Below are positions 797-63,170 of a stretch of 64,000 bases of DNA, one piece after another. The notes beneath the pieces are model-generated. The model ran no database searches. It was given only the letters and a program-made list of their open reading frames with translations, and was not told the DNA's origin. The stretch is from assembly GCA_016214995.1 (NCBI GenBank), contig JACRML010000058.1, positions 4,194 through 68,193 of the forward strand. The letters run 5' to 3'. The position numbers were made by a program, and so were the translations under genes. Source of the DNA: Deltaproteobacteria bacterium (GTDB lineage: Bacteria > Desulfobacterota > GWC2-55-46 > UBA9637). The stretch's first letter is position 1. Every line of letters starts with the position of its first letter.

Positions 797-900
797 GTAG
801 AAACAGACCTTTAGGTCTGTTACCCCCCCCCAAAAAATGCAACTGCATTTTGGGGGGGTATAAACGGGCTATCAAAACAGATCTGAAGACCTGCTTCCAC
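797..900. repeat. REPIN-like doublet of GTAG/GTGG-headed REP units flanking a G/C-clamped palindrome
   Basis: 797-822 reads GTAGAAACAGACCTTTAGGTCTGTTA. 875-900 is the reverse-oriented relative (GTGGAAGCAGGTCTTCAGATCTGTTT). Between them, 823-857 reads C9-AAAAAATGCAACTGCATTTT-G7, a near-perfect palindrome. Confidence 0.8.
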
Positions 901-1513: not shown

Positions 1514-1608
1514 CCCAAAAAATGCACTGGCATTTTCATCCCCCTTTGTGAGCCTATGGCTCGTGAGGGTTTGCCTCGAAAAATTAAAAGCAACTGCATT
1601 TTTCGGGG
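1514..1608. repeat. Two degenerate copies of the AAAATGCA-NN-TGCATTTT palindrome family plus a GAGCC/GGCTC hairpin
   Basis: The sequence reads CCCAAAAAATGCACTGGCATTTTCATCCCC, then CGAAAAATTAAAAGCAACTGCATTTTTCGGGG. It occupies the gspL-gspM intergenic region. Confidence 0.6.
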
Positions 1609-2940
1609 TTAAATGCCTTTATGAATAATTGAGAAGCTGAACGTAACCCCGCCTCCCGGCTTTGTTTTGATATCTGTCAGAGAGACTTCCTGCAAATAAG
1701 AAGCCTTCGCAATCGCATCCTTAAAACCGCCGGCTGCTTCAAACGAATCCGCTTCTCCCTTTGCAATTATCCTTCCCTCTTCCATGTGAATCTTATACAG
1801 TCTTATCCGTACGTGCTTATCAATACCTTTTGCCAACTCCTTCATTACCTCAAGCACAGGCATACCATCGGCAAAAACCTGATTTTCTTTTTTAAGCCCC
1901 TTTAGTTTGGCCTCAAGTTGATATAACGAGTCCACCACATTCGGCTCCCCTGGAAAGAGTCCGAGATAGCCTGCCTTCAACTCTTTCTCTATTTGAACAA
2001 GCTTGCTGCTAAACATCCTGTGCTTCAGATATGCGTTAGCCCCCCACAGGCAAAGCAAGATTGCGGCAAGAATTGCAGCCGCAACCATTCCTCTCTTGGC
2101 TGCGCGGACATCTTTTGCATAGGCGAACTCCCCTTTTCTGAAGTTTATAGTTTGCTTCAGGCCTTCTTCTTTAAGATATGCTGCCAATGCAATGATGCCT
2201 GTCCTTTCCGGATATTCATTTAACATTTGTCCCCAGTTCCGACTGGCTAACGGCAGCAATACATTCTCTTTGCCAGAAACAATATCTGATTTGTCACTTG
2301 CATTGCCGATGCTGTATATCTTTTCTACCTCTATCCCTTCAGTAAAAAGATTTGCGATGGCAAGCTTCAAATCCAGAGCATCTCTTAACTCGCTGAAGAG
2401 ATAAGGCTTCCCGTCTTTAGACACTACGACAGATTCTCTATCAATCAATGCTACTGCAGTGCCGTTGGCAGAAATGTCTTCTAAAAGTTTATGCTTTGAA
2501 AAAATGGCGGAGCCAATCCATGACGGGTCAACATCGGCCTTTTTCAAGATATCCAGATAGTACTGCAAGGTTTTTTTTCCCACAGATACTGCAAGAATCC
2601 TCTGCTCCCCAACAGGCATTGCCTCTATAAACATGTCATCTGTCTTTTCAGGAAGCAGTTCGCTGAGTTCAAACGACAGAACCTCTTTTACCTTTTTATC
2701 ATAAAAGGGCAGGGCAACGACTCTCATACTCACTTGACTGACAGGTATGCCTGCCATAATCATTGTAAAATCTTCATAGCCTTTTCCCCTGATATCCCGC
2801 AAAAGAGAAGAAAGCGCCATGCCAGCATCTCCGTCAATTTGAGAAGTAAAGAATGCCTCTGGTTCTACTTTTTTGGATGAAAATATTCCAGCGTTGACGG
2901 ATTCTCTGCCGAAATCCAGGATCAGAATATGCCTTGCCAT
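1609..2940 (-). CDS. gspL: Type II secretion protein L (PilM/GspL-type)
   Basis: 443 aa. It has an actin-like ATPase-fold N-terminus (ILILDFGRESVNAGIF), one central TM helix (VAAAILAAILLCLWGANAYL) and a periplasmic C-domain. Its start overlaps the gspK stop as TAATG. Confidence 0.7.
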   Translation of the reverse strand: MARHILILDFGRESVNAGIFSSKKVEPEAFFTSQIDGDAGMALSSLLRDIRGKGYEDFTMIMAGIPVSQVSMRVVALPFYDKKVKEVLSFELSELLPEKTDDMFIEAMPVGEQRILAVSVGKKTLQYYLDILKKADVDPSWIGSAIFSKHKLLEDISANGTAVALIDRESVVVSKDGKPYLFSELRDALDLKLAIANLFTEGIEVEKIYSIGNASDKSDIVSGKENVLLPLASRNWGQMLNEYPERTGIIALAAYLKEEGLKQTINFRKGEFAYAKDVRAAKRGMVAAAILAAILLCLWGANAYLKHRMFSSKLVQIEKELKAGYLGLFPGEPNVVDSLYQLEAKLKGLKKENQVFADGMPVLEVMKELAKGIDKHVRIRLYKIHMEEGRIIAKGEADSFEAAGGFKDAIAKASYLQEVSLTDIKTKPGGGVTFSFSIIHKGI

Positions 2941-3909: not shown

Positions 3910-4030
3910 AAATTCCAAATCTCAAATCCCAGGTTCCAAATAATATTCAATAACCAAAAATCAAAAAGCTGATTGTTGCGATTTGGTTATTGGAATTTAT
4001 TTGGTTACTGGTGTTTGGTAATCGGAATTT
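3910..4030. repeat. Imperfect 120-bp palindrome built of TTCCAAA/AACCAAA short-period units
   Basis: The left arm (AAATTCC...CCAAATAATATTCAATAACCAAAAATC) matches the reverse complement of the right arm (GATTTGGTTATTGGAATTTATTTGG...GGAATTT). It lies in the gspK-gspJ junction. Confidence 0.7.
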
Positions 4031-4041
4031 TTATCCTCCCT

Positions 4042-4698
4042 CTACCTTATTCTCGTTCTGACAATTGTTGAAAACTCCCTTACCTCACCCCTGTCTTTAA
4101 CGGCAATTACAACCCTCACAGCCTCAGGGAGTTTCTTTTCAAGGGAACTGTCCCATGTCTTTGCCCAATCCTTTCCGTTAAAATAGCTAACCTCAAAGCC
4201 TTCCACACCTTCAACAACCTCGGCACTGAGTCCATCTTTTCCGTCTCCGGTATATGGATTCCATGTCTTCTTATATAGCGTCAAAACCTCATCTGTATTT
4301 TCTTGAACAGAATACTGTACGGCTAAGAGGTCGCTGACCGGGTAGCCGCCCCGTATGAGAGGATATGTAAAGGCAGTAAATAGAACTTCACTAAAAGGTT
4401 TATTGTAGCTACCCTTTTTCCCACCGGCAAAGATGGTTCTGGAATTATTGTCTTTAAAAAAAGAGGACTGGATTTCCAGAGAAAAGATATCCAAAAACCG
4501 CCTGATTTCCCTCGTCCGCTCCAGTTCATTTTCTATCTTTTCCTGACTGCTCAGTACTGAAAAAAAACTTCCATAAAGGGCTGTGAGTACCACAGACATT
4601 ATTGAAACAGCAATCAGTAGTTCTAATAAAGTAAAACCATTATTAGCGGAATTTGAAATTTGAAATTTGAAATTTGAAATTTTATTTTTTAGTCTCAT
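4042..4698 (-). CDS. gspJ: Type II secretion minor pseudopilin J
   Basis: It carries the prepilin motif NNG|FTLLELLIAVSIMSVVL. Two ATG candidates exist, at 4722 and 4698. Either way the leader (21 or 29 aa) contains the heptamer-array peptide ISNFKFQISN. Confidence 0.65.
   Translation of the reverse strand: MRLKNKISNFKFQISNSANNGFTLLELLIAVSIMSVVLTALYGSFFSVLSSQEKIENELERTREIRRFLDIFSLEIQSSFFKDNNSRTIFAGGKKGSYNKPFSEVLFTAFTYPLIRGGYPVSDLLAVQYSVQENTDEVLTLYKKTWNPYTGDGKDGLSAEVVEGVEGFEVSYFNGKDWAKTWDSSLEKKLPEAVRVVIAVKDRGEVREFSTIVRTRIR
4651..4683. repeat. (ATTTGAA)n heptamer tandem array, about 4.5 units
   Basis: Reads ATTTGAAATTTGAAATTTGAAATTTGAAATTT. The same array recurs at 34501-34533. Confidence 0.9.
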
Positions 4699-5092
4699 AT
4701 GTTTCCAGGGTAATCCTTTCATCCCTTCCCCATGATACAGAAAGGTATACCTTTTTAAGGCCGCTTATCTGTGTATCTTCTGCATCATACTTCCATCGGA
4801 AATTTTCAAATTTAGGCGCAAAATCCCCTTCCTTGTCCTGAAGAATGCCGCCTGTCTTCATCTCCTCCAGTTTTTCCCTTGCCAGCATGGTCGCAATGGT
4901 CATGTCCCTGTCCCTTTCTATAATGCTTAAATGATAATTGAGGCTGCCTAAAATCGTTATAATCACTCCGGATAAAAGCGCAAGCGACACCATTATCTCC
5001 AGCAATGTAAAACCTTTTTCGGATTTCGGATCTGCCTGCGAAGTTATGACCCGAAAAATGCATTTAGTTTTTATTTTTCGGGTCAAACGCAA
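4682..5092 (-). CDS. gspI: Type II secretion minor pseudopilin I
   Basis: It carries the prepilin motif SEKG|FTLLEIMVSLALLSGVI. The ORF is open to the ATG at 5263 (83-aa leader) and reads through a structured insert. The nearest alternative starts are TTG at 5092 and 5086. The start is uncertain. Confidence 0.6.
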   Translation of the reverse strand: MRLTRKIKTKCIFRVITSQADPKSEKGFTLLEIMVSLALLSGVIITILGSLNYHLSIIERDRDMTIATMLAREKLEEMKTGGILQDKEGDFAPKFENFRWKYDAEDTQISGLKKVYLSVSWGRDERITLETYETKK

Positions 5093-5230
5093 GATTTGAG
5101 CCAAAGACAAGGAAAAGCTGGCTGGACAAAACGGAGCATACTGTTTTAAGTATGTGAGTATTTGGACAGTTAGCTTTGACGCAGTATTTGGCCAAAGATT
5201 GCGTTTGTAAGAAAATGTTATTGCATTTTC
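5048..5230. repeat. Structured insert between gspH and gspI
   Basis: Three elements are present. A hairpin GACCCGAAAAATGCA...TTTTTCGGGTC lies at 5048-5084. An inverted repeat pairs AAACGCAAGATTTGAGCCAAAG (5085-5106) with TTTGGCCAAAGATTGCGTTT (5187-5206). A palindrome GAAAATGTTATTGCATTTTC lies at 5211-5230. Confidence 0.7.
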
Positions 5231-5255
5231 TGGGATGATGCTCTGTATAAAATTT

Positions 5256-5816
5256 CTAAACATATCCCTTCAAAACCTTTACCTTGCCTGAATAGGGGTT
5301 ATAGCCAATTGTCAATAATCGCTGTCCCATTTTCAGATGAATGACAAAAGGTTCAGCCCCAACAATGGGGTTGAATACAACCGCCGCTTCTCCCTCGTTT
5401 ATACGTCCCAAGCTTGAAATGACAACATCTTCCATCTCCACCGATTTCTTCAGGGACAATCCTCTTAAAAGGGGCTCCTGCGATTTATTAAACTCAATCC
5501 CGTCTATAGAGGTTTCTATTTTAAACAACTCCTTTTCAGGATAGAACCAAACCCTGTAATATATTTTTTTTGCAGAGGCAGATTCCTCCAGATAACGCAG
5601 CAGGCCGGCCACGCGTCTGGCCTCTGCGTTAAGGGTATAATCTTCAAAGAAATGGATTTTTGGAAAAACGACAAGAAGGACCGTGCCAAGTATAGCTATT
5701 ACTGACAGAAGTTCTAAAAGGGTGAATCCTGTTTTTGAGTGTGAAAGCTGTAGAAACAGGCCTTTAGACCTGTTAATTCTTAAAATGTAGAAACAGGCCT
5801 TCAGGTCTGTTAACAT
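5256..5816 (-). CDS. gspH: Type II secretion minor pseudopilin H
   Basis: It carries the prepilin motif SKTG|FTLLELLSVIAILGTVLL. The closest canonical start upstream of the motif is the ATG at 5816 (the ORF is open to 5858). The resulting leader of about 34 aa is encoded by two REP units. Confidence 0.65.
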   Translation of the reverse strand: MLTDLKACFYILRINRSKGLFLQLSHSKTGFTLLELLSVIAILGTVLLVVFPKIHFFEDYTLNAEARRVAGLLRYLEESASAKKIYYRVWFYPEKELFKIETSIDGIEFNKSQEPLLRGLSLKKSVEMEDVVISSLGRINEGEAAVVFNPIVGAEPFVIHLKMGQRLLTIGYNPYSGKVKVLKGYV

Positions 5817-5840
5817 GGCTAAAGCTATGTTTCTACATTT
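5750..5840. repeat. Three GTAG-headed REP units (two direct, one inverted)
   Basis: 5750-5776 reads GTAGAAACAGGCCTTTAGACCTGTTAA. 5787-5813 reads GTAGAAACAGGCCTTCAGGTCTGTTAA. 5814-5840 is a reverse-oriented variant, GTAGAAACATAGCTTTAGCCATGTT. Confidence 0.85.
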
Positions 5841-5894
5841 TCTTGTAAATATGTTCATATAATTCTATCGTAGGCAATTTCCAGCGTGAACTGT

Positions 5895-6362: not shown

Positions 6363-6469
6363 TATTTTTAAACCTCCTTTTCTACACTTACTTATTGCCT
6401 TTATAGTGAATAACTTAAATAAGTTGACATGGTATTAAGAAATCTTAAATTCTAACCCGGACAAGCCGG

Positions 6470-6617
6470 AAATGACAAATGTTAAAGCTCAAAGTTCAAA
6501 TGAAATCCAAATTTCAAATTACTAAATTTTTGACATTGGGATTTTGACATTCATTTGACATTTGGATTTTGAAATTTGAACTTTATTTGTAATTTGGATT
6601 TTGTCATTTGACATTTC
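6470..6617. repeat. A/T-rich short-period arrays (TTTGACA/TTTGAAA units) in both orientations
   Basis: GAAATGACAAATG, AGTTCAAATG and AAATCCAAATT recur as reverse complements on the right side. TTTGACAT repeats three times in the centre. It lies in the gspG-gspF intergenic region. Confidence 0.65.
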
Positions 6618-12685: not shown

Positions 12686-12755
12686 TGATTGAAACGGCTC
12701 TATTTAAGTATAAAAGATACTATAAAATGGCATAGAAGGCAAATAGAAAGATTAA

Positions 12756-13006
12756 CCCCAAAATAGACATTGACTTTGGGGGAAACTGCCCCCGATTGAT
12801 TCTATCGGGGGCTGCCAGACGAGGCAGAGGCCATTTTTGCTACGAGCCGTATGACACCTATACGGTGAGGAGCAAAAATTGGCCGATAATTAAGTCGGGG
12901 CACCCAAGCAAAGCTTGGGGCGGGCAAATCGGCTGGCTCCATTTGCTGCGAAGCAATTGCAAGTGGAAGATTTAAAATAGCGAGGTTTTTAATCGCTATT
13001 TTACGG
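12756..13006 (+). repeat. Mosaic multi-hairpin repeat, copy A
   Basis: It shares its terminal modules with copies at 23818, 36792 and 28205(rc). These are CCCAAAA(T)AGAC..TTTGGGG, then AGCAAAAATTGGCCGATAA, then AAATCGGCTGGCTCCA, then the hairpin CCAyTTGC..GCAAGTGG, then the hairpin AAAATAGCGAG..TCGCTATTTTACGG. The internal modules differ between copies. Confidence 0.9.
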
Positions 13007-13019
13007 ATTAATCTTTATT

Positions 13020-21232: not shown

Positions 21233-22303
21233 ATGTCTGATCCACGTGTAGAGAAGCTTGCAGATATTCTCATCAATTATTCGCTTAAGGTAACCAAGGG
21301 GGAACGGGTTCTGATAAACGCATCTTCAGAACTTGCAAAACCGCTTGTTCTGGAGGTGTATAAAAATGTTCTGAAGGCCGGCGGCCACCCAACGGTAAAT
21401 ATTGCATTTGAGGAGATGACAAATATCTTTTACAATCTGGCCGCAAAAGAGCAGCTTCTGGATTTTCCCAAGGCAAAGTTTTTTGAGGCAAAAGGCGTTG
21501 ACTGCGTTGTAAATATAAGGGCTGCGGCAAATAAAAAAGCTCTTTCCAATGTTGACTCAAAGGCAATCAGCATGCGTAGCAAGGTCTTGATGCCCATACA
21601 GGAAGAGATTGTCAACAGGAAGCGGTGGGTGCTTTGTAATTTTCCAACAAATGCCCTGGCACAGGAGACGGATATGTCTTTGGAGGAATATGAAGATTTT
21701 CTCTACGGCGCAACCAATATAGACTGGGAAAAGGTCAAAAAAGAGGAGATGAAACTTAAGCTGGTTCTGGATAAAGGAAAGATTGTAAGGATAGTTGGTA
21801 AGGACACGGATTTGACTATGAGCATTAAAGGGAGAAAGGCCATCCCATGTTTCGGAGAAAGGAATATGCCGGACGGCGAGGTGTTTTTGTCTCCTGTAGA
21901 AAATTCTGCTGAAGGTAAAATCTACTACGACCTGCCTGCTATATATCAGGGGAAAGAGGTTTTGGGGATTCATCTTAAATTCAAGAAAGGCAAGGTTGTT
22001 GAGGCATCGGCTGAAAAAAACGAAAAATTCCTTATTGCAATGCTGGATACAGACAAAGGGGGGCGGTATCTAGGCGAATTAGGCATTGGCACAAACTATG
22101 GCATAAGGCATTTTTCCAAGGATATTTTATTTGACGAAAAGATAGGCGGCACGGTTCATCTGGCTGTAGGCAGGTCGTATAAAGACGCCGGCGGCAAAAA
22201 TGAGTCTGCAATCCACTGGGATATGATAAAGGACTTGAGAAACGGCGGGGCGATTTATGTGGACGGAAGACTTATCCAGAAAAACGGGAGGTTTTGCTAT
22301 TAG
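21233..22303 (+). CDS. Aminopeptidase, M29 (AmpS/PepS) family
   Basis: It reads ADILINYSLKVTKGERVLI ... GELGIGTNYGI ... GGTVHLAVGRSY. Length is 356 aa. Confidence 0.8.
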   Translation: MSDPRVEKLADILINYSLKVTKGERVLINASSELAKPLVLEVYKNVLKAGGHPTVNIAFEEMTNIFYNLAAKEQLLDFPKAKFFEAKGVDCVVNIRAAANKKALSNVDSKAISMRSKVLMPIQEEIVNRKRWVLCNFPTNALAQETDMSLEEYEDFLYGATNIDWEKVKKEEMKLKLVLDKGKIVRIVGKDTDLTMSIKGRKAIPCFGERNMPDGEVFLSPVENSAEGKIYYDLPAIYQGKEVLGIHLKFKKGKVVEASAEKNEKFLIAMLDTDKGGRYLGELGIGTNYGIRHFSKDILFDEKIGGTVHLAVGRSYKDAGGKNESAIHWDMIKDLRNGGAIYVDGRLIQKNGRFCY

Positions 22304-23799: not shown

Positions 23800-23817
23800 G
23801 AAACCACAGATAATTTA

Positions 23818-24094
23818 CCCAAAAATAGACATTGATTTTTGGGGAAACCTGCAAGTTGCCTGCCAGACAACACACCCCTAAATCCCCTCTCGAGAGGGGA
23901 CTAAAGGGGTGTGTTATTTACGACGAGCCCTCCCCCTTTATCCCCCTCATGGAGGGGGACAGGGGAGGATACGGTGAGGAGTAAAAATTGGCCGATAACG
24001 AAGTATGGCAGGCAAATCGGCTGGCTCCACTTGCTGCGAAGCAATTGCAAGTGGAAGATGTAAAATAGCGAGTGTTTCAATCGCTATTTTACGG
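23818..24094 (+). repeat. Mosaic multi-hairpin repeat, copy B
   Basis: It has the same terminal modules as copy A. Its internal modules are AACACACCCCTAAATCCCCTCTCGAGAGGGGACTAAAGGGGTGTGTT and CCCTCCCCCTTTATCCCCCTCATGGAGGGGGACAGGGGAGG. It ends 10 nt before the ATG at 24104. Confidence 0.9.
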
Positions 24095-24103
24095 TTTAAA
24101 ACA

Positions 24104-25450
24104 ATGAATAATAGCTATGATGTTATCATAGCAGGCGCTGGACCTGCGGGCATCTTTGCAGCGCTTGAGCTCCTTTCTGCCAAAAAGAACCTCAAGATTC
24201 TTCTTTTGGAAAAAGGCGAAGATCTGCCTGACAGAAAATCTAATGATATATTTCAGGGCTGGGGCGGGGCAGGCACATTCAGCGATGGGAAGCTCAATCT
24301 TTCTACCGGTGTCGGAGGGTTTTTAAATGAATATATCGGGGAAGATGAGCTTGAATCCCTTATAGATTATGTTGACAGGATATTTTTAAAATATGGCGCA
24401 CCTGCTGAACTCCACGGCACAGACGAGGAAGAGGTAAAGAGGCTGGAGGAGATTTCTGCAAGAAACGGGCTTAAGCTTGTGCCGTTTAAGATAAGACATC
24501 TTGGCACAGACAGATGTTTCTCGCTTTTAAAAAATTTAAGGGAAGAGGTAAATGCAAAAATTGATATTCAATTCAACGCCGAGGCAGTTGAGATATGTAA
24601 GCAAGACCATAAAGCGGCCGGCGTCAAAACCAGCGATGGCAGAGAGTTTCTTGGAGATTTTGTAATCCTTGCCCCGGGCAGAAGCGGCTCCCACTGGCTG
24701 AGCGAAGAATCAAAAAGGCTCGGCCTTTCCACAGGCAATAACCCTGTTGATATCGGCGTAAGGGTTGAGGTGGCTGCCTCCATCATGAGACCGATAACAG
24801 ATGTGATGCACGAGGCAAAACTTTTATTTTACTCCAAACGGTTTGACGATTTGGTAAGGACATTCTGCATGAACCCTTACGGCGTTGTGGTAAAAGAAAA
24901 ACACAAAGACTTCTGCACAGTGAACGGCCACAGCTTTTCTACAAAAAAGACCAATAATACAAACTTTGCAATTCTTGCCTCTACAACATTTACAGAGCCA
25001 TTCCATGAACCGATCGCCTACGGCCAGTATATTGCAAAACTCGTCAATCTCCTCGGCGAAGGCATTATCGTTCAGAGACTCGGAGACCTGCTGCAAGGCA
25101 GAAGGTCTACTCCTGACAGGATAAAAAAGGGGAGCGTTAAGCCAACATTGGCAGATGCGACACCCGGCGACCTTTCCTTTGCAATCCCATACCGATATAT
25201 AGCAGATATACTTGAAATGCTGGAGGCGCTGGATAAGGTTGCACCCGGCGTATATTCTACATCTACCCTCCTCTATGGCGCAGAGGTAAAATTCTATTCA
25301 ATGAGGCTCAAGCTTACAAACAATCTTGAAACAGAGATTAAAAACCTGTTTGCAGCAGGCGACGGCGCAGGAATCACAAGAGGCATTATCCATGCAGCAG
25401 TGTCCGGGGTGGTGGCGGCGAGGGAGATTCTGAAAAGAATTGGAAAATGA
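24104..25450 (+). CDS. FAD-dependent oxidoreductase (COG2509-like)
   Basis: It has the dinucleotide-binding motif YDVIIAGAGPAGIFAALEL and FSDGKLN. The track ORF starts at 24005, but those 33 codons are translated repeat sequence. Confidence 0.75.
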   Translation: MNNSYDVIIAGAGPAGIFAALELLSAKKNLKILLLEKGEDLPDRKSNDIFQGWGGAGTFSDGKLNLSTGVGGFLNEYIGEDELESLIDYVDRIFLKYGAPAELHGTDEEEVKRLEEISARNGLKLVPFKIRHLGTDRCFSLLKNLREEVNAKIDIQFNAEAVEICKQDHKAAGVKTSDGREFLGDFVILAPGRSGSHWLSEESKRLGLSTGNNPVDIGVRVEVAASIMRPITDVMHEAKLLFYSKRFDDLVRTFCMNPYGVVVKEKHKDFCTVNGHSFSTKKTNNTNFAILASTTFTEPFHEPIAYGQYIAKLVNLLGEGIIVQRLGDLLQGRRSTPDRIKKGSVKPTLADATPGDLSFAIPYRYIADILEMLEALDKVAPGVYSTSTLLYGAEVKFYSMRLKLTNNLETEIKNLFAAGDGAGITRGIIHAAVSGVVAAREILKRIGK

Positions 25451-34755: not shown

Positions 34756-35727
34756 TTACAGTCTCACCTCTATATATGCCTTTTTCATTACTTCTTCCAG
34801 CCAAAGTTTGTATCTTTCATCTATAACCTTCTGAAAGATGGTATTCCTAATCTCATCCTCAACCTCTGAAAGAGGCCTTGCCGCCGCCCCCTGCTTATCT
34901 ATCAGCTGTATTATGTGAAATCCTGTAGAGGTTTTGATTACATTGCTTATCTCGCCAGTCTTTAATCCAGTTGCAGCCCGCTCTATTGCTGCATCCATCT
35001 CACCTGCTTTAATATAGCCAAGGTCGCCGCCTTCTTTTGCATTAGGCCCTTGCGAATACTCCTTCGCAAGCCTTACAAAATCTTCTCCACCCCGGGCTGC
35101 GGCAAGGATATTATCTGCCTTCTTCTCTATATCTTTTCTTTTATCCTGTTCACTGGAGAGCAGTGATATTATTCGCAGCCTATGCGTTACGGGGCCAGAG
35201 AATTTACCCTGATTCTGCCTGTAATAGGCTTCTATATCTTCATTAGATATTTTTGCATTTGAGCGAAATTCTTTGTTTATAAACTTTACCTGCCTGATTT
35301 GGTCCTTAAGCTGCTCCCGGTATTCCTTGAAGGTAAGGCCGTTTCTTGCCAGAGCGCTTAAAAGTTCTTGCTGGCTTACATTGTTTTGCCTTTTTACATC
35401 TTCAATAGCATTGTCTATCTCTTTTTCGCTGATGGTGATTCCTGCTTTATTTGACGCCTGCTCAACTAATTTTTTCTCAATAAGCTGATCCAACACCTTG
35501 CTCTTTGTCTCTATAATCTTTTTCCGCTTATCTTTATCATTGCCCTTTATATCTTCCAAGCCAGCAGTGGCAACATTCAATTCAGACAGGGTAATAGCGC
35601 TGTCGTTTACAACAGCCACAACCCTGTCTACAATCTCAGCGTGAGCAGGGAAAGACAGTAAGCAGTAAGCAGTAAGCAGCAGCAATTTAAATCGTAAATC
35701 GTAAATCGTAAATCGTAAATCAATCAC
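34756..35727 (-). CDS. surA: SurA-like periplasmic chaperone / parvulin PPIase
   Basis: It has a SurA N-domain and a parvulin motif (GGDLGYIKAGEM...STGFHIIQL). Its signal peptide is encoded by heptamer arrays. Confidence 0.75.
   Translation of the reverse strand: MIDLRFTIYDLRFKLLLLTAYCLLSFPAHAEIVDRVVAVVNDSAITLSELNVATAGLEDIKGNDKDKRKKIIETKSKVLDQLIEKKLVEQASNKAGITISEKEIDNAIEDVKRQNNVSQQELLSALARNGLTFKEYREQLKDQIRQVKFINKEFRSNAKISNEDIEAYYRQNQGKFSGPVTHRLRIISLLSSEQDKRKDIEKKADNILAAARGGEDFVRLAKEYSQGPNAKEGGDLGYIKAGEMDAAIERAATGLKTGEISNVIKTSTGFHIIQLIDKQGAAARPLSEVEDEIRNTIFQKVIDERYKLWLEEVMKKAYIEVRL
35656..35721. repeat. Two adjacent heptamer arrays, (CAGTAAG)3 and (AAATCGT)4-5
   Basis: It reads CAGTAAGCAGTAAGCAGTAAGCAGCAGC...AAATCGTAAATCGTAAATCGTAAATCGTAAATC. 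It covers the first ~24 codons of the surA-like gene. Confidence 0.9.
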
Positions 35728-36767
35728 AACAACTCCTCCTTAACCTCTATCCTTGCCCTTTGTTTTAATTCTTGCATCCATACCTGAAATTCTGCATCGC
35801 TTTTTTCTTTTTTCAGCTTATTTATTATCTGGTTTTTTACCTCTGAAAATTTCAGATCCTTTGCACCTCTTTTCTCTTCAACCCTGAAAATATGATAACC
35901 ATACGCAGTTTTTACAACCTGACTCAGCTTGTTTACAGGGAGAGAAAATACTACATCCTCAAACTCCTTTGGCATAATGCCTTTGCTAAAAAAACCCAGG
36001 TCTCCGCCCTTTTTGCCCTCGGGGCCTAAAGAAACCTCTTCAGCTAGTTTTGCGAAATTTTCTCCTTTTTTTAATCTTTCCCTTATTTGATTGGCCTCAT
36101 CTTCCGTCTTCACTACAATCATCAGCGCCCTTATCTGCTCCTCAACTTTATAATCCGCTATATGCTCTTTATAATATTTTCTGGCATCATTTTCTTTCAC
36201 GGTAAGCTTAGAGGTAATAGCCTTATCTATAACCTTCTTAATCAATAATTTCTTTTTAAGCTCTTCCTTCCATTTTTCCATGCTTCCGTACCTGCTCAGA
36301 ATAGTTGGTTCAAACGCATCTCCGGCGTATTCTCTTTTAATTTCTTCCAGTTCTCGTGAAAGTTCGTCAGCATCAACATTCAATGCCACCTTCTTTGCCT
36401 CTTCTAAAAGCAACTCTTCTTCAAGAAATTGATTAACAAGGGCCATCTTAAGATTTCGCAGCTCTTCATCTTTTATCTCTGCGGCTGCTTCGTCTTCTAT
36501 AAATAACTTTTTAAAGGTATCCTGAAATTCTCCGCGTGTAATTTCCCTGTCATTTATTTTTATGATAATCTCACTGACAGACGGAAGGCTTTTTTCTTCT
36601 TCCTTCTTTTTACAACCTGCAGTGAGCAGGAAAAAAAGAGACAAGAGGCAGAAGGCAAGAGGCAAGAGGCGAAATCTTATTTTGCTTCTGACTTCTTGTT
36701 TCCGGCTTCTTGCTTCCGATTTTTGTTTCTCCGTCATCTGTTTTCTCTCATTTATTTTGTATTTCAA
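35724..36767 (-). CDS. Parvulin-type PPIase lipoprotein (PrsA/PpiD-like)
   Basis: It has a lipoprotein-type signal ending LLTAGC. It has the parvulin motif GGDLGFFSKGIMPKEFE...AYGYHIFRV. Confidence 0.75.
   Translation of the reverse strand: MKYKINERKQMTEKQKSEARSRKQEVRSKIRFRLLPLAFCLLSLFFLLTAGCKKKEEEKSLPSVSEIIIKINDREITRGEFQDTFKKLFIEDEAAAEIKDEELRNLKMALVNQFLEEELLLEEAKKVALNVDADELSRELEEIKREYAGDAFEPTILSRYGSMEKWKEELKKKLLIKKVIDKAITSKLTVKENDARKYYKEHIADYKVEEQIRALMIVVKTEDEANQIRERLKKGENFAKLAEEVSLGPEGKKGGDLGFFSKGIMPKEFEDVVFSLPVNKLSQVVKTAYGYHIFRVEEKRGAKDLKFSEVKNQIINKLKKEKSDAEFQVWMQELKQRARIEVKEELL
36637..36717. repeat. Purine-arm / pyrimidine-arm heptamer palindrome (GCAAGAG / CTTCTTG units)
   Basis: AGAGACAAGAGGCAGAAGGCAAGAGGCAAGAGGC faces TTGCTTCTGACTTCTTGTTTCCGGCTTCTTGCTTCC. 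It belongs to the same family as 58541-58629. Confidence 0.85.
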
Positions 36768-36791
36768 ATTTTTATTAAACAGTTCATAGTG

Positions 36792-37040
36792 CCCAAAAAT
36801 AGACTTTGCTTTTTGGGTAAACCTGCAAGTTGACTGCCAGACAACACACCCCTAAATCCCCTCTCGAGAGGGGACTAAAGGGGTGTGTTATTTGCGACGA
36901 GCCGTATATCACCAATACGGTGAGGAGCAAAAATGTGCCGATAACAAAGTATGGCAGCCAAATCGGCTGGCTCCACTCACTGCGAAGCAATTGCAAGTGG
37001 AAGATGTAAAATAGCGAGGTTTAAAATCGCTATTTTACGG
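36792..37040 (+). repeat. Mosaic multi-hairpin repeat, copy C
   Basis: It is near-identical to copy B across the AACACACCCCT...AGGGGTGTGTT module and the 3' modules. The track ORF 36951-37139 is translated repeat. Confidence 0.9.
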
Positions 37041-37055
37041 ATAGGCAAAATACTA

Positions 37056-53307: not shown

Positions 53308-53477
53308 TAAATACAGTAGGCAGTATGCAGTAAGGAGTATGCAGTAAAAAAACAGAAGATGATAGGTTGAGAAATTGAGAAGTTAAGAATTTTCACCCTC
53401 TTGTCGTTTCAGTTTCTTATCCTCTTAACTTCTTTTCCTCTTTTCTGCCTACTGCTTACTGTCTACTGCCTACTTTT
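53308..53477. terminator. Nested 170-bp palindrome of two heptamer families between convergent genes
   Basis: The outer arms are CAGTAGG CAGTATG CAGTAAG GAGTATG CAGTAAA, facing CTGCCTA CTGCTTA CTGTCTA CTGCCTA. The inner arms are GGTTGAGAAATTGAGAAGTTAAGAA, facing TTCTTATCCTCTTAACTTCTTTTCCTC. The right arm ends in TTTTT. Confidence 0.6.
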
Positions 53478-56925: not shown

Positions 56926-56953
56926 CCCCAAAAATGCAACTGCATTTGGGGGG
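56926..56953. repeat. CCCC-AAAAATGCAACTGCATTT-GGGGGG palindrome
   Basis: It belongs to the same family as 823-857. It lies upstream of the atpZ-like gene. Confidence 0.8.
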
Positions 56954-57000: not shown

Positions 57001-58647
57001 TCATCTTAATAATTGTGTAACTTTCTTTTGACCGCCCACATCTTCAAACGGGAAATCCTTCCTATAAGGCACAACAGCAAGGCTTATATTGCCTATTTCT
57101 TTTATCTTGGTTAAAAGCCCTATCACTTCCTGATCTGGCAGGGGTTGCGACGTGTTCCAATCAATTGTCTGAAATTTCATCAGAACCTTTTGCGGCTCAC
57201 CGACCAGCCTGACCGCCTCGCTGGTCATATTTTGTATCAGGCTCTGTATCTCATAAGGTTCTTTTTTTAACTCATCATGCATCTGTCGATGATAGGCCAT
57301 TACCGCATAATAATCAAACCACTGCTTTACAGCCTCATCAAGGCTCTGGGAAAGCCATGCCATTGCGTAAGGAGGGTTTGAGATACTCTCATACATCAGA
57401 TTTATTACAAATTTTGCATTCGGGTTTTTCTTTTTTACAACTGCTTTAATTCTCATTGCAACCTGAAGCAGCCTTTTATTTTTCCACGCTGCCCATCTCC
57501 AGAACTCCGGAGCATATTGAGGGTTCAAGGGTTCAAGGGTTACAGAGTTCAAATTCTGCCCCATGTTATTATAAAGTTCAGCCGGTATAAGCCTCTTGTC
57601 GTTGTCCTTTTTATAAAACGCATCACTGTAAGAACCAAAACCTTCATTATGCTTTAAAACAAGGTCATCCTGAAAAAGTACGCCATCGATAGGATATTCC
57701 GCAAGGTCATTAAAGAGTTTTTCCAGATGATAAACAGCCGCTTCGTTAAAAAGGTCAAGTCCTTTGCAGGAAACAATATTTTTTGTATGAAAGTCGTACG
57801 CCTTGCAGCCAAGGTCTTTTCTATGTTCCAGGCCATAGTCAGCATATCTCGTTGTCATCCACGCAAATACCTTTAATCCTTTTTTATGCGCCATATCAAG
57901 AACAGTCCCAAGTATATCCTCAACTACCGGAGATTCTTTTGTTTTAAAATAGACCCCAACCTTGCTCCTCGGTTTTATAAATTGATAAAATCTATCTTCC
58001 TTATTATGGAAAACCCTTAAAATAATAGTATCTATGCCTGCCCCCTTTAACCTATCCAGTTCCTTATCAACTTCCTTATAGTTTTTCCCTTCAAACAAGG
58101 CAATCTGAACAGTCCGTAATGGTGACGAAAAACCTAGAGGTTGAGAGGTTAAGAGGTTGGATTGAACCTTTACTACCGGAAGTTTAGGCGCAGCAACAAA
58201 CTCTGCCTCTCCCTGCTTAAAACCTGCGGGGACATGTTTCAATTTCGCTTTAGCAATTTCCAATTTTAAAGATGCTTCTCTTTTAAACTCATTATCGGGA
58301 AAGTTCTTAATAAGCTGCTGCCATTGACCAACAGCCTCTTGATACATGGATGCATTGAGACACGCATCACCAATCATGTATTGGGCATGAGGAATAATCT
58401 GGCTACCCGGAAAATAATCTATTACCCTGCCGAACTCCCTGGCAGCAACCGTATAATGGCCCTGTTTATAAAGAAACATGGCGTAGTTGAACTGGTCTTT
58501 GTCTGTGAGGAAGGGACGATTCCCCTGAGCGTTTAGGGAAGATGCAAGAAGCAAGAGGCAAGAGGCAAGAGATAAGAGGTAAGAGACAAGATTTTTTTCT
58601 TGCTTCTTGCTTCGGACTTCTTGCTTCTTATTTCTAAAACAACACAT
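57001..58647 (-). CDS. Exported TPR/YbgF-like plus glycoside-hydrolase-like (PgaB C-terminal-like) protein
   Basis: Its signal peptide ends SLNA|QG. A TPR-like segment reads YAMFLYKQGHYTVAAREFGRVIDYFPGS. A TIM-barrel-like region reads IDTIILRVFHN...KGLKVFAWMTTRY. The functional call is weak. Confidence 0.4.
   Translation of the reverse strand: MCCFRNKKQEVRSKKQEKNLVSYLLSLASCLLLLASSLNAQGNRPFLTDKDQFNYAMFLYKQGHYTVAAREFGRVIDYFPGSQIIPHAQYMIGDACLNASMYQEAVGQWQQLIKNFPDNEFKREASLKLEIAKAKLKHVPAGFKQGEAEFVAAPKLPVVKVQSNLLTSQPLGFSSPLRTVQIALFEGKNYKEVDKELDRLKGAGIDTIILRVFHNKEDRFYQFIKPRSKVGVYFKTKESPVVEDILGTVLDMAHKKGLKVFAWMTTRYADYGLEHRKDLGCKAYDFHTKNIVSCKGLDLFNEAAVYHLEKLFNDLAEYPIDGVLFQDDLVLKHNEGFGSYSDAFYKKDNDKRLIPAELYNNMGQNLNSVTLEPLNPQYAPEFWRWAAWKNKRLLQVAMRIKAVVKKKNPNAKFVINLMYESISNPPYAMAWLSQSLDEAVKQWFDYYAVMAYHRQMHDELKKEPYEIQSLIQNMTSEAVRLVGEPQKVLMKFQTIDWNTSQPLPDQEVIGLLTKIKEIGNISLAVVPYRKDFPFEDVGGQKKVTQLLR
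57520..57556. repeat. Heptamer array (GGGTTCA units), intragenic
   Basis: It reads GAGGGTTCAAGGGTTCAAGGGTTACAGAGTTCAAATTC. It encodes NSVTLEPLNPQ. Confidence 0.85.
58133..58168. repeat. Heptamer array (GAGGTTR units), intragenic
   Basis: It reads CCTAGAGGTTGAGAGGTTAAGAGGTTGGATTGAACC. It encodes QSNLLTSQPLG. Confidence 0.85.
58541..58629. repeat. Purine-arm / pyrimidine-arm heptamer palindrome (GCAAGAR / CTTCTTG units)
   Basis: GATGCAAGAAGCAAGAGGCAAGAGGCAAGAGATAAGAGGTAAGAGACAAG, then ATTTTTT, faces TCTTGCTTCTTGCTTCGGACTTCTTGCTTCTT. It covers codons 7-36 of the 57001-58647 gene. Confidence 0.9.
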
Positions 58648-63058: not shown

Positions 63059-63143
63059 CTACATAGGTAGCATGAAAGTGTCTGAGAGTCAGGGTATCGA
63101 GGACTCAAAATTCTTACTTTGATACCCTGACACTTTGAGTCTA

Positions 63144-63166
63144 CAAAAAAATGTAACTGCATTTCT
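63144..63166. repeat. Degenerate AAAATG(C/T)A-AC-TGCATTT palindrome
   Basis: It reads CAAAAAAATGTAACTGCATTTCT. It lies between the convergent HD-GYP and epimerase genes. Confidence 0.5.
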
Positions 63167-63170
63167 TAGG

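Follow-up and report, generated by a model that had tools for sequence, protein, structure and literature searches.

Four multi-hairpin repeats in a deltaproteobacterial contig are probably copies of a miniature transposable element with a conserved folded core

What are the four blocks of hairpins that lie between unrelated genes in a 64,000-nt stretch of the genome of an uncultivated, sulfate-reducer-like deltaproteobacterium? The stretch, called the window below, is the whole of the DNA analyzed here (contig JACRML010000058.1 of assembly GCA_016214995.1, Deltaproteobacteria bacterium, positions 4,194 to 68,193), and coordinates are counted from its first letter. A first-pass annotation, made from the letters of the window, had described the blocks as a mosaic element and had left the choice between a non-autonomous mobile element and a family of structured RNAs. 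We conclude, with a probability of about 0.8, that they represent copies of a small transposable element that has no genes (MITE, for miniature inverted-repeat transposable element) with a canonical length of 183-185 nt, moved by a transposase encoded elsewhere. Within it lies a folded segment of 122 nt, which recurs in other families of elements.

We use fam1 for the element family of the four copies that were first noticed. The copies align end to end, with a mean column identity of 74%, and a profile search of the window returned exactly four, in agreement with the coordinates and strands of the first-pass annotation. Most fam1 copies have the canonical length, whereas those of the window are longer (218-277 nt). 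Their features are as follows.

12756..13006, plus strand: fam1 copy 1, 251 nt, with its core at 12810-12905 (56.5 bits)
~12756-12782 and ~12973-13004: 5' and 3' hairpins of copy 1
12751..12755 and 13007-13011: left and right target-site duplication ATTAA of copy 1
23818..24094, plus strand: fam1 copy 2, 277 nt
23818-23844 and 24060-24092: 5' and 3' hairpins of copy 2
23869-23915: module a of copy 2 (AACACACCCCT..GGGGTGTGTT)
23930-23968: module b of copy 2 (CTCCCCC..GGGGAGG), in place of the apex hairpin
24020-24059: module e of copy 2
23814-23817 and 24095-24098: flanking repeat TTTA of copy 2
36792..37040, plus strand: fam1 copy 3, 249 nt, with modules a and e
36786-36791 and 37041-37046: degenerate flanking repeat of copy 3 (ATAGTG vs ATAGGC)
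28205..28422, minus strand: fam1 copy 4, 218 nt, the closest to canonical (188 bits), with module a
28423-28427 and 28200-28204: flanking repeats of copy 4 (GAAGT and GAAGA, 4/5 match)

The distribution of the element was examined by scanning a one-genome-per-species collection with the invariant 17-mer ACGGTGAGGAGNAAAAAT, which matched at least 98 stretches. About 55 among the 98 matches listed are copies of fam1, and all of these, among those listed, lie in metagenome-assembled genomes (MAGs) named 'Deltaproteobacteria bacterium' or Thermodesulfobacteriota. The MAGs are RIFCSPHIGHO2_02_FULL_43_33, GWC2_42_11, GWF2_42_12, five NC_groundwater bins, H32-bin127_2, MFD12058 and SMAG_U7962; the genome of the window stands outside this set. 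Syntenic pieces of the RIFCSPHIGHO2 MAG are 81-88% identical to the window. Full-length copies with flanks numbered 51, four from the window and at least 47 from about 10 related groundwater MAGs. Collected loci carry L numbers, and the canonical reference copy is L065:713-897.

Exact direct repeats are present at both ends of 27 of the 51 copies (5 bp in 18, 6 bp in nine), and in many others the flanking repeats match at 4/5 positions. In a control with mismatched left and right flank pairs, an exact 5-mer was found in 0.4% (binomial p ~1e-43). Since the repeated sequence differs between copies (ATTAA, ACATG, GGGGT, ATGAGG and others), it is a target-site duplication and not part of the element. 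The ends of the element are imperfect inverted repeats (5' CCCAAAAATAG vs CCGTAAAATAG, with the 3' end reading CTATTTTACGG). Only short, mechanical open reading frames (ORFs) cross the copies, and there is no coding capacity for a transposase.

Filled and empty versions of the same orthologous site were also found in related genomes. In L050 the element lies in the 8-nt spacer between two operon genes (GAGTAGTT, MITE, AGTTTTCCATG), whereas L021 has the uninterrupted sequence GAGTAGTTTTCGATG. The reciprocal case is a copy in L021, ~200 nt away, for which the corresponding site of L050 is empty. Likewise, the window site that matches the L008 copy at 2678-2861 (near 22300) is empty. Window copy 2 and the L008 copy at 1044-1226 are both upstream of the orthologous FAD-oxidoreductase gene, but judging from their different duplications (TTTA vs CAGA) and distances to the ATG (9 vs 18 nt), they are probably independent insertions. 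At the level of strains, exact-protein look-ups in Logan retrieved only two contigs of ~1.2 kb with proteins identical to those of the window, and both contigs end inside the repeats.

Bacterial MITEs are small and non-coding, with terminal inverted repeats and target-site duplications (PMC3184786; PMC10969869). With duplications, inverted repeats, dispersal over many genomes and filled/empty sites, fam1 thus falls within the published definition, and the mobile half of the first-pass alternative is strongly supported. The MITE is a known kind of element, and fam1 is a genuine repeat family of this kind.

Genes flanking the copies are unrelated housekeeping genes: a PDZ protein and a SurA-like protein at copy 1, an HTH regulator and an FAD oxidoreductase at copy 2, an ECF sigma factor plus a small membrane ORF at copy 4, and a PPIase and mfd at copy 3. 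This excludes segmental duplication, which the first-pass annotation had named as an explanation that would undo its reading. The same flanks bear on the view that the copies are chromosomal structured RNA genes (small RNAs or 5' leaders) that spread by duplication and are not transposons. Such genes would account for the strong fold and covarying helices described below, and three of the four window copies do point at a downstream start codon. The unrelated neighbors (SurA-like, FAD oxidoreductase, ECF sigma, mfd) are joined on the other side by the variable target-site duplications, the terminal inverted repeats, the filled/empty orthologous sites, the wrong-way orientation of 15/49 copies, a copy of a sister family (fam3) within a coding region and the lack of an Rfam match. 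We consider this explanation very improbable.

If the copies are MITEs, is their fold more than a by-product of inverted repeats? Folded as RNA, the canonical copy reaches -90.3 kcal/mol, vs -42.3 +/- 4.2 for shuffles (z = -11.6). In this fold of three units, a 122-nt rod (helices P1-P4) stands between a 5' and a 3' terminal hairpin, and each terminal repeat is contained within its own hairpin. The helices are listed here by their two strands.

5' terminal hairpin: CCCAAAAAU/AUUUUUGGG
P1: AAACCUGC/GCAGGUUU
P2: UUGCCUGCCA/UGGCAGGCAA
P3: CGGACAAUUUUUAC/GUAAAAAUUGUCCG
P4: GCCGUAU/AUACGGU
3' terminal hairpin: GUAAAAUAGCGA/UCGCUAUUUUAC

Between the helices lie GA-rich internal loops (AGAC-RA-GG / C-GMA-GUAU, and GAC-GAG / UGA-GGAG). 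The first-pass annotation had suggested a covariation test of its hairpins. We counted covariation on 46 fam1 copies, with the structure taken from one of them, and the helices do covary. Paired cells make up 93.5%, and nine pairs, with 68 cells, are altered on both sides (CG<->UA and UA<->GC in P1, CG<->GC in P2, CG<->AU and GC<->AU in P3). The observed covariation score or paired fraction was reached by 0/500 shuffles, the copies being related to each other. In control structures with partners shifted by 1-3 columns, only 35-46% of cells are paired. The loops of fam1 are variable and its stems are kept. Variable pairs include 54 G.U cells vs 42 A.C cells, and 24 of the latter come from two columns that are misaligned in sub-lineages. 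The plus strand folds more stably than the minus strand in 36/38 cores (25/26 in fam1, and 5/6 and 6/6 in the sister families fam2 and fam3).

The window copies depart from this canonical form by their internal modules. All four have the 5' hairpin, the GGTGAGGAG-AAAAAT segment and the 3' hairpin AAAATAGCGAG..TCGCTATTTTACGG. The other two of the five modules that the first-pass annotation took to be shared, AAATCGGCTGGCTCCA and the CCACTTGC..GCAAGTGG hairpin, occur in three copies and are both missing from 28205-28422. Its statement that modules are swapped or deleted between copies is borne out: AACACACCCCT..AGGGGTGTGTT stands in for 16 nt of canonical sequence in three copies, and copy 1 carries two inserted hairpins, GCCCCCGAT..ATCGGGGGC and CGGGGCACCC..GGGGCGGG, as well as the CCACTTGC..GCAAGTGG module in place of the 3' strand of P1. 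The 16 nt swapped out by module a take in the 5' strand of P3; module b takes the place of the apex, and module e that of the 3' strand of P1. The rod is thereby damaged in three window copies, in P1 or P3, yet these copies fold strongly. They look like older, decaying or remodelled derivatives of the canonical element.

The internal modules were compared by BLAST for free-standing occurrence. Modules a, b, d, e and f are hairpins found only within element copies, never as free repeats, and we therefore rejected the idea that they are independent mobile palindromes. This result also bears on the likeness to bacterial interspersed mosaic elements (BIMEs) that the first-pass annotation had seen. 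A BIME is a cluster of ~35-bp repetitive extragenic palindromes (REPs) in alternating orientation, mobilized by REP-associated tyrosine transposases (RAYTs) without target-site duplications. A RAYT-mobilized mosaic of this type, or a mere cluster of terminators, would fit the mosaic of hairpin modules, the intergenic location and the presence of REP-like GTAG hairpins elsewhere in the window. What was found is a single 185-nt unit with a fixed order of modules and with target-site duplications, its variable modules are confined to the element, and copy 2 has no terminator-like site inside it. The likeness does not hold, and we give an explanation of this kind hardly any credence.

How do the copies sit among the genes? 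According to crude ORF calls, on which the orientation counts also rest, all 51 fam1 copies are intergenic, and many are 0-20 nt from a stop or start codon. Insertions are often inside operons, a few bases from such a codon. The element has a TAG at positions 9-11 and a TGA at 16-18, which gives stops in two of three frames within the first 18 nt, so that it can end an upstream ORF that it clips. Right flanks often start with a purine-rich, Shine-Dalgarno-like duplicated target (for example, ACGG followed by AGGTAAGCAAATG). From these flank sequences, duplication of the target can be expected to keep the downstream ribosome-binding site intact. The 3' end is directed toward a same-strand downstream gene in 34/49 copies, and 15/49 are opposite (p = 0.009).

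The window copies illustrate these settings. Copy 1 lies between two divergent genes and ends 95 nt upstream of one of them, the SurA_N gene (13102). Copy 2 begins 18 nt past the stop of the HTH gene and ends 9 nt ahead of the FAD-oxidoreductase ATG (24104), and an ATG inside it (24005) is in frame with the latter gene, resulting in a false 33-codon N-terminal extension (24005-24103). In copy 4, a TAG (28412-28414) within the first 11 nt of the element serves as stop codon of the ECF sigma-factor ORF (28412..29155), and the 3' end is 66 nt upstream of a small ORF that starts at 28138. Copy 3 is antisense to both of its neighbors and lies between the mfd stop (37056) and the PPIase gene start (36767). 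The first-pass distances to the next start codon (96, 10 and 67 nt) were approximately those measured here, and the false ORFs it described are readable in copies 2 and 3 as the peptides MAGKSAGSTCCEAIASGRCKIA and MAAKSAGSTHCEAIASGRCKIA.

Is the folded core peculiar to fam1? A second family, fam2, was found via a diverged partial copy in L073 and then by a metagenome scan with AGCCATACN{6,10}GTATGGTGAGGAG. It is 184 nt long, and its terminal repeats, CCCAAAATCCGATTT and CCCAAATCCCGATTT, match at 13/15 positions without a gap. Exact 5-bp duplications flank fam2 copies (TTGGG, GTTAG, CATCT, TTTAT, TCCAC, AACAA), and the three-unit fold is as in fam1 (-91.4 kcal/mol, z = -12.6). The third family, fam3, was first seen as a conserved block recurring near fam1 copies. 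It is ~185 nt long and multi-copy, with three copies in one MAG, inverted repeats that match at 14/16 (CCCGAAAAATGCA and CCCAAAAAATGCA) and duplications of 4-5 bp (TTAA, TAAA, ATGA). The window has a copy of fam3, a shorter element that resembles it and several solo palindromes.

5050..5234, plus strand: fam3 MITE, 185 nt, terminal repeats CCCGAAAAATGCA and CCCAGAAAATGCA
5050-5082, 5085-5207 and 5210-5234: its 5' hairpin, core rod and 3' hairpin
5046-5049 and 5235-5238: its target-site duplication ATGA
1514..1609, minus strand: short fam3-like element, ~96 nt, its terminal hairpins of the fam3 type and its core truncated (CACGAGCC-ATA-GGCTCAC)
829..856: solo palindrome CCCAAAAAATGCAACTGCATTTTGGGGG, which matches the 3' terminal hairpin of fam3 (a back-to-back pair of inverted terminal repeats)
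26276-26303, 56926-56953 and 63143-63170: similar solo palindromes (CCCAAAAAATGCAnnTGCATTTTTTGGG)

The 96-nt element and the solo palindromes may be minimal elements or remnants. The fam3 copy is inserted 27 nt past the start codon of a pseudopilin-like gene (4682..5263, minus strand). Together with its duplication it comprises 189 nt, or 63 codons, the frame stays open and the prepilin motif KGFTLLE lies downstream of the insertion; the predicted pseudopilin thus gains 63 residues in its leader peptide. This related element goes beyond the first-pass annotation, as do the 4-6-bp duplications, the terminal inverted repeats and the finding that the window copies are enlarged derivatives of a 185-nt element. 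Separately, we observed orthologous fam3 cores in L075 (6260-6382) and L091 (7369-7491) that are 90% identical to the window copy and have lost or degenerate terminal hairpins. These may be immobilized copies that keep the core alone.

A covariance model built from 14 fam1 cores only detects the other families. It scores fam2 at 64-82 bits and the window fam3 core (5085-5206) at 45.3 bits on the plus strand (E = 1e-10 over the whole window) and 12.2 bits on the minus strand. A high-GC element in L122 reaches 37.4 bits, and fam4 27.6 bits; the latter is a more diverged core from the same MAG clade (L041 3321-3444, plus strand, -55.8 kcal/mol). When the sequences were threaded on 43 fam1 pairs, in alignments that are fitted to the model and so biased toward its structure, the pairs were distributed as follows.

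fam2: 25 unchanged, 14 changed on both sides, 2 broken
fam3: 17 unchanged, 21 changed on both sides, 4 broken
L122: 14 unchanged, 25 changed on both sides, 3 broken

Across families, the core keeps its length (121-123 nt in three of them), the AAAC...GUUU ends of P1, the GA-rich internal loops and a G.U pair as the closing pair of the apex hairpin. The helices differ by compensatory changes, and the terminal hairpins are different. By our reading of the predicted folds, the GAC-GAG / UGA-GGAG loops would form tandem G.A pairs that alternate with C-G pairs.

The apex motif ACGACGAGCC-AUAC..GUAU-GGUGAGGAG was also observed on two high-GC metagenome contigs, at L122 565-730 (minus strand) and L114 1022-1117 (plus strand). 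In L122 the whole core matches and is placed at the tip of a 32-bp perfect foldback, which lies between a GGDEF gene stop and the next ATG and is flanked by TAG/CTAG. This arrangement suggests a different transposon shell around the same core.

One element is a chimera (L103 2261-2463, minus strand, and L115). It combines the 5' hairpin of fam1 with the body and 3' end of fam2, and its AACAA duplication is intact. Thus, termini and core behave as separable modules. Going by these sequences, the termini would be the mobility module and the rod a conserved core. In L099 (11256-11498 and downstream), L106 and L108, a fam2 copy directly adjoins a fam1 copy. What is new relative to known MITEs is the three-unit architecture and a 122-nt structured core that is common to at least four families with differing termini and to a high-GC element.

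What, then, does the core do? A search of the whole window against Rfam 15 at gathering level gave no matches, and the Rfam check suggested by the first-pass annotation accordingly assigned no family. Permissive searches with copy 2, canonical fam1, fam2, L122 and L114 gave only sub-threshold matches, mainly to generic hairpin-shaped families and mostly to microRNA precursors. The Rfam families covered include group II intron domains, self-cleaving ribozymes, HEARO and 6S, and the element is no known ribozyme or riboswitch. Several known motifs were considered by eye and rejected. A likeness to group II intron domain V (GAGCCGUAU..AUACGGU) fails on an overly short stem, a missing bulge, wrong basal pairs and lack of support from Rfam. 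A hammerhead core (UGANGA) has the wrong strand order and is missing C3. The R boxes of attC sites do not fit, and the consensus of IHF sites is unmatched. BLAST of the canonical fam1 copy and the L122 element against 72,556 plasmids returned no match, nor did a scan of viral contigs for the apex motif.

A conserved secondary structure on one strand with compensatory changes was found, with the caveats that the copies are related, the alignments lean on the model and the element is palindromic. Conserved non-complementary loops, covarying helices, constant length, the invariant G.U, strand asymmetry and orientation bias together favor a constraint on a single strand, most simply on a transcript. 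From these sequence patterns, the rod appears to be a conserved single-stranded module of the plus strand that most likely acts in RNA. The structured RNA of the first-pass annotation was wrong as an alternative to mobility, but it did touch on something real: the helices covary, the fold is strand-specific and orientation is biased (34 vs 15). When the element is co-transcribed with host operons, the rod would probably fold autonomously. Our best guess is that it would be a protein-binding or processing/stability module that makes sense-oriented operon insertions tolerable.

A stronger proposal is that the rod is an undescribed, widely distributed structured RNA module with its own function, the core of several MITE families with interchangeable termini and of high-GC foldbacks. 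Its features would be P1-P4, the GA-rich loops with (GAC)n / (GAG)n tandem G.A pairs and the G.U-closed apex. The rod might be bound by a protein such as a transposase cofactor, an RNase or a global regulator, or it might act in cis in processing or against polarity. Either role would enable the transposon to reside within operons, and the module would then be, by analogy, a bacterial counterpart of the 'core domains' of eukaryotic superfamilies of short interspersed elements (SINEs). We put this proposal forward tentatively, and would not expect it to prove right in full.

Several points weigh against a MITE with a functional rod. Concerning mobility, the match between the terminal repeats of fam1 is weak (9/13; CCCAAAAATAGAC vs the reverse complement of the 3' end CCGTAAAATAGCG), about a quarter of the copies have no recognizable target-site duplication, and a search of ~1.1 Mb turned up neither an autonomous parent nor a transposase with matching ends. 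Concerning the rod, kinship of the copies makes the shuffle control overstate significance. P1 or P3 is disrupted by replacement modules in three of the four window copies, which implies that an intact rod is unnecessary for the persistence of a copy. When copy 2 and its flanks were scanned for promoters and terminators, no such site fell within the element; the sole terminator-like site is downstream (24114-24132, minus strand). Co-directional gene pairs alone give 19 sense vs 8 antisense copies (p = 0.05), which weakens an orientation bias already based on crude gene calls. Finally, the covariation of the arms could arise at the level of DNA, by co-evolution with a transposase or by arm-to-arm conversion.

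The last point can be developed into a full explanation, in which the arms of the rod are long subterminal inverted repeats to which the transposase or a bending protein of the host binds, and fam1 is a MITE without RNA function. The arms would then co-evolve with the binding protein or be homogenized by conversion between them. The halves of the rod are indeed mutual inverted repeats, and both the profile and the covariance model give significant matches on the minus strand. Inverted repeats alone make many MITEs fold into long hairpins (PMC3184786, PMC10969869). The tolerance of P1 and P3 disruption in the window, and the inflation of shuffle statistics by related copies, are in line with this explanation as well. 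What it handles poorly is that non-complementary loops are kept across families while the helices change on both sides, the opposite of shared inverted-repeat binding sites. The apex G.U, invariant in every family, would be an A.C mismatch on the other strand. Greater stability of the plus strand in 36/38 cores, a core held at 121-123 nt in three families, the separability of termini and core in the fam1/fam2 chimera and the orientation bias relative to transcription also argue against it. We regard a constraint on DNA as a possible explanation, with odds clearly below even.

For the MITE itself, the enzyme that moves it has to be sought elsewhere. In ~1.1 Mb of fragmentary MAG and metagenome sequence, fam1 end pairs 0.1-6 kb apart were only MITE-sized, as were relaxed CCnnAAAATAG pairs with duplications and fam2 end pairs, and no matching-end pair 0.6-6 kb apart was found, with or without duplications. 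When ORFs of 150 aa or more from the collected loci were compared all-vs-all, a single multi-copy protein emerged, which is a sigma-54-dependent response regulator and not a transposase. The signature of DDE transposases, which make staggered cuts, is a combination of inverted repeats and short duplications of fixed length. We therefore infer, from the duplications and inverted repeats only, that a DDE-type transposase mobilizes the element in trans, by staggered cuts of 4-6 bp. The IS1380 family, with CC ends and 4-5-bp duplications, is a possible lead, as are the IS701 and ISLbi1 types.

The duplications also separate fam1 from elements of the IS200/IS605 type. Enzymes of this type, and those of the RAYT type, produce no target-site duplication, and the insertion site of IS200/IS605 elements lies 3' of a fixed tetra- or pentanucleotide. 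A transposase-less, palindrome-associated element of this kind, with an internal RNA that serves as the guide (omega) RNA scaffold of TnpB or IscB and reads into the flank, would resemble fam1 in its hairpins at both ends, its strand-specific fold, the ~120-nt structured scaffold between the hairpins and a 3' end that abuts flanking DNA. In contrast, fam1 has variable 4-6-mer repeats on both sides, no conserved motif in the left flank and ends that are inverted repeats. No tnpA, tnpB or iscB was seen next to any copy, and the transposon-associated RNA families of Rfam are unmatched. An IS200/IS605-type origin is highly improbable.

Identification of the MITE explains four odd intergenic blocks and a 63-codon insertion in a pseudopilin gene, and it accounts for false ORF starts, the borrowed stop codon of the ECF sigma factor and the two Logan contigs that end in repeats. 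Masking of these elements is advisable when annotating these groundwater Thermodesulfobacteriota/'Deltaproteobacteria' genomes. The four families, the chimera, the solo hairpins and the high-GC relative form a natural series that separates the parts needed for mobility from the folded core. If the core works as RNA, this would be a transposon with a dedicated structured RNA that permits residence with little damage between, and even inside, the genes of operons, and Rfam would lack a new bacterial RNA motif, one of repeated tandem G.A pairs. If it works as DNA, it marks the binding architecture of a transposase family. We consider the interest of the element moderate, and higher if the core proves to be a functional RNA.

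The window contains other repeats. GTAG-preceded REP-like hairpins (TGTAGAAACAGGCCTTTAGACCTGTTAA) are present at 796-823, 5749-5776 and 5786-5841, one with an inverted partner as in a REPIN doublet; they are a repeat family separate from the MITEs. Long AT-rich imperfect inverted repeats, with arms of 57-58 nt that are 72-75% complementary, occupy intergenic positions in the pseudopilin cluster (3910-4030 and 6469-6617). Intergenic heptanucleotide tandem repeats (AGGCAAG, AAGAGGC, CAGTATG, TGAAATT, TAAATCG and others) are abundant, often as two complementary arrays able to form a long hairpin, and are reminiscent of the short tandemly repeated repetitive (STRR) heptamers of cyanobacteria. The arrays include the following.

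58535-58629: heptanucleotide array
36636-36729: heptanucleotide array
53314-53474: heptanucleotide array
35656-35721: heptanucleotide array
4650-4682: heptanucleotide array
34493-34533 and others: heptanucleotide arrays

How does fam1 compare with known systems? Its nearest described counterparts are bacterial MITEs as a group. Bacterial MITEs such as Correia/NEMIS, ERIC, RUP, Nezha and Chunjie are, like fam1, shorter than 500 bp, non-coding and multi-copy, with inverted repeats and duplications; they too are found at intergenic AT-rich sites, show filled/empty polymorphism and have transcripts predicted as very stable stem-loops (PMC3184786, PMC10969869). Chunjie, a 178-235-bp element of the deltaproteobacterium Geobacter uraniireducens, was reported inside an operon without disrupting it (PMC3184786; PMC10969869). 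Its inverted repeats are 21 bp and its duplications 9 bp (PMC3184786), compared with ~11-15 bp and 4-6 bp here. Unlike MITEs in general, the elements described here fold into two terminal hairpins that hold the repeats plus a separate rod, and not into one hairpin of the terminal repeats, and their rod is conserved across families with differing termini.

Functionally closest are the bcr1 repeats, which resemble fam1 in approximate length, 5-bp repeats and compensatory changes. They duplicate a specific TTTAT target, while the sequence duplicated by fam1 varies. According to PMC3184786 (citing Okstad 2004, Klevan 2007, Kristoffersen 2011), these group A repeats of the Bacillus cereus group are ~155 bp long, with 5-bp direct repeats and a strain-variable distribution. 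The same paper describes them as transcribed, with compensatory changes that maintain a multi-hairpin ('cruciform-like') RNA and with no known transposase (PMC3184786). Transcription has been shown for bcr1; bcr1 and fam1 have no sequence relationship and belong to different host phyla.

A more distant parallel is offered by the eukaryotic CORE-SINE and V-SINE superfamilies. These are retrotransposed RNA polymerase III transcripts with tails derived from long interspersed elements (LINEs), whereas the elements described here are DNA elements with inverted repeats and short duplications of constant length. The likeness is one of analogy only: in both, a conserved central domain is combined with differing mobility ends.

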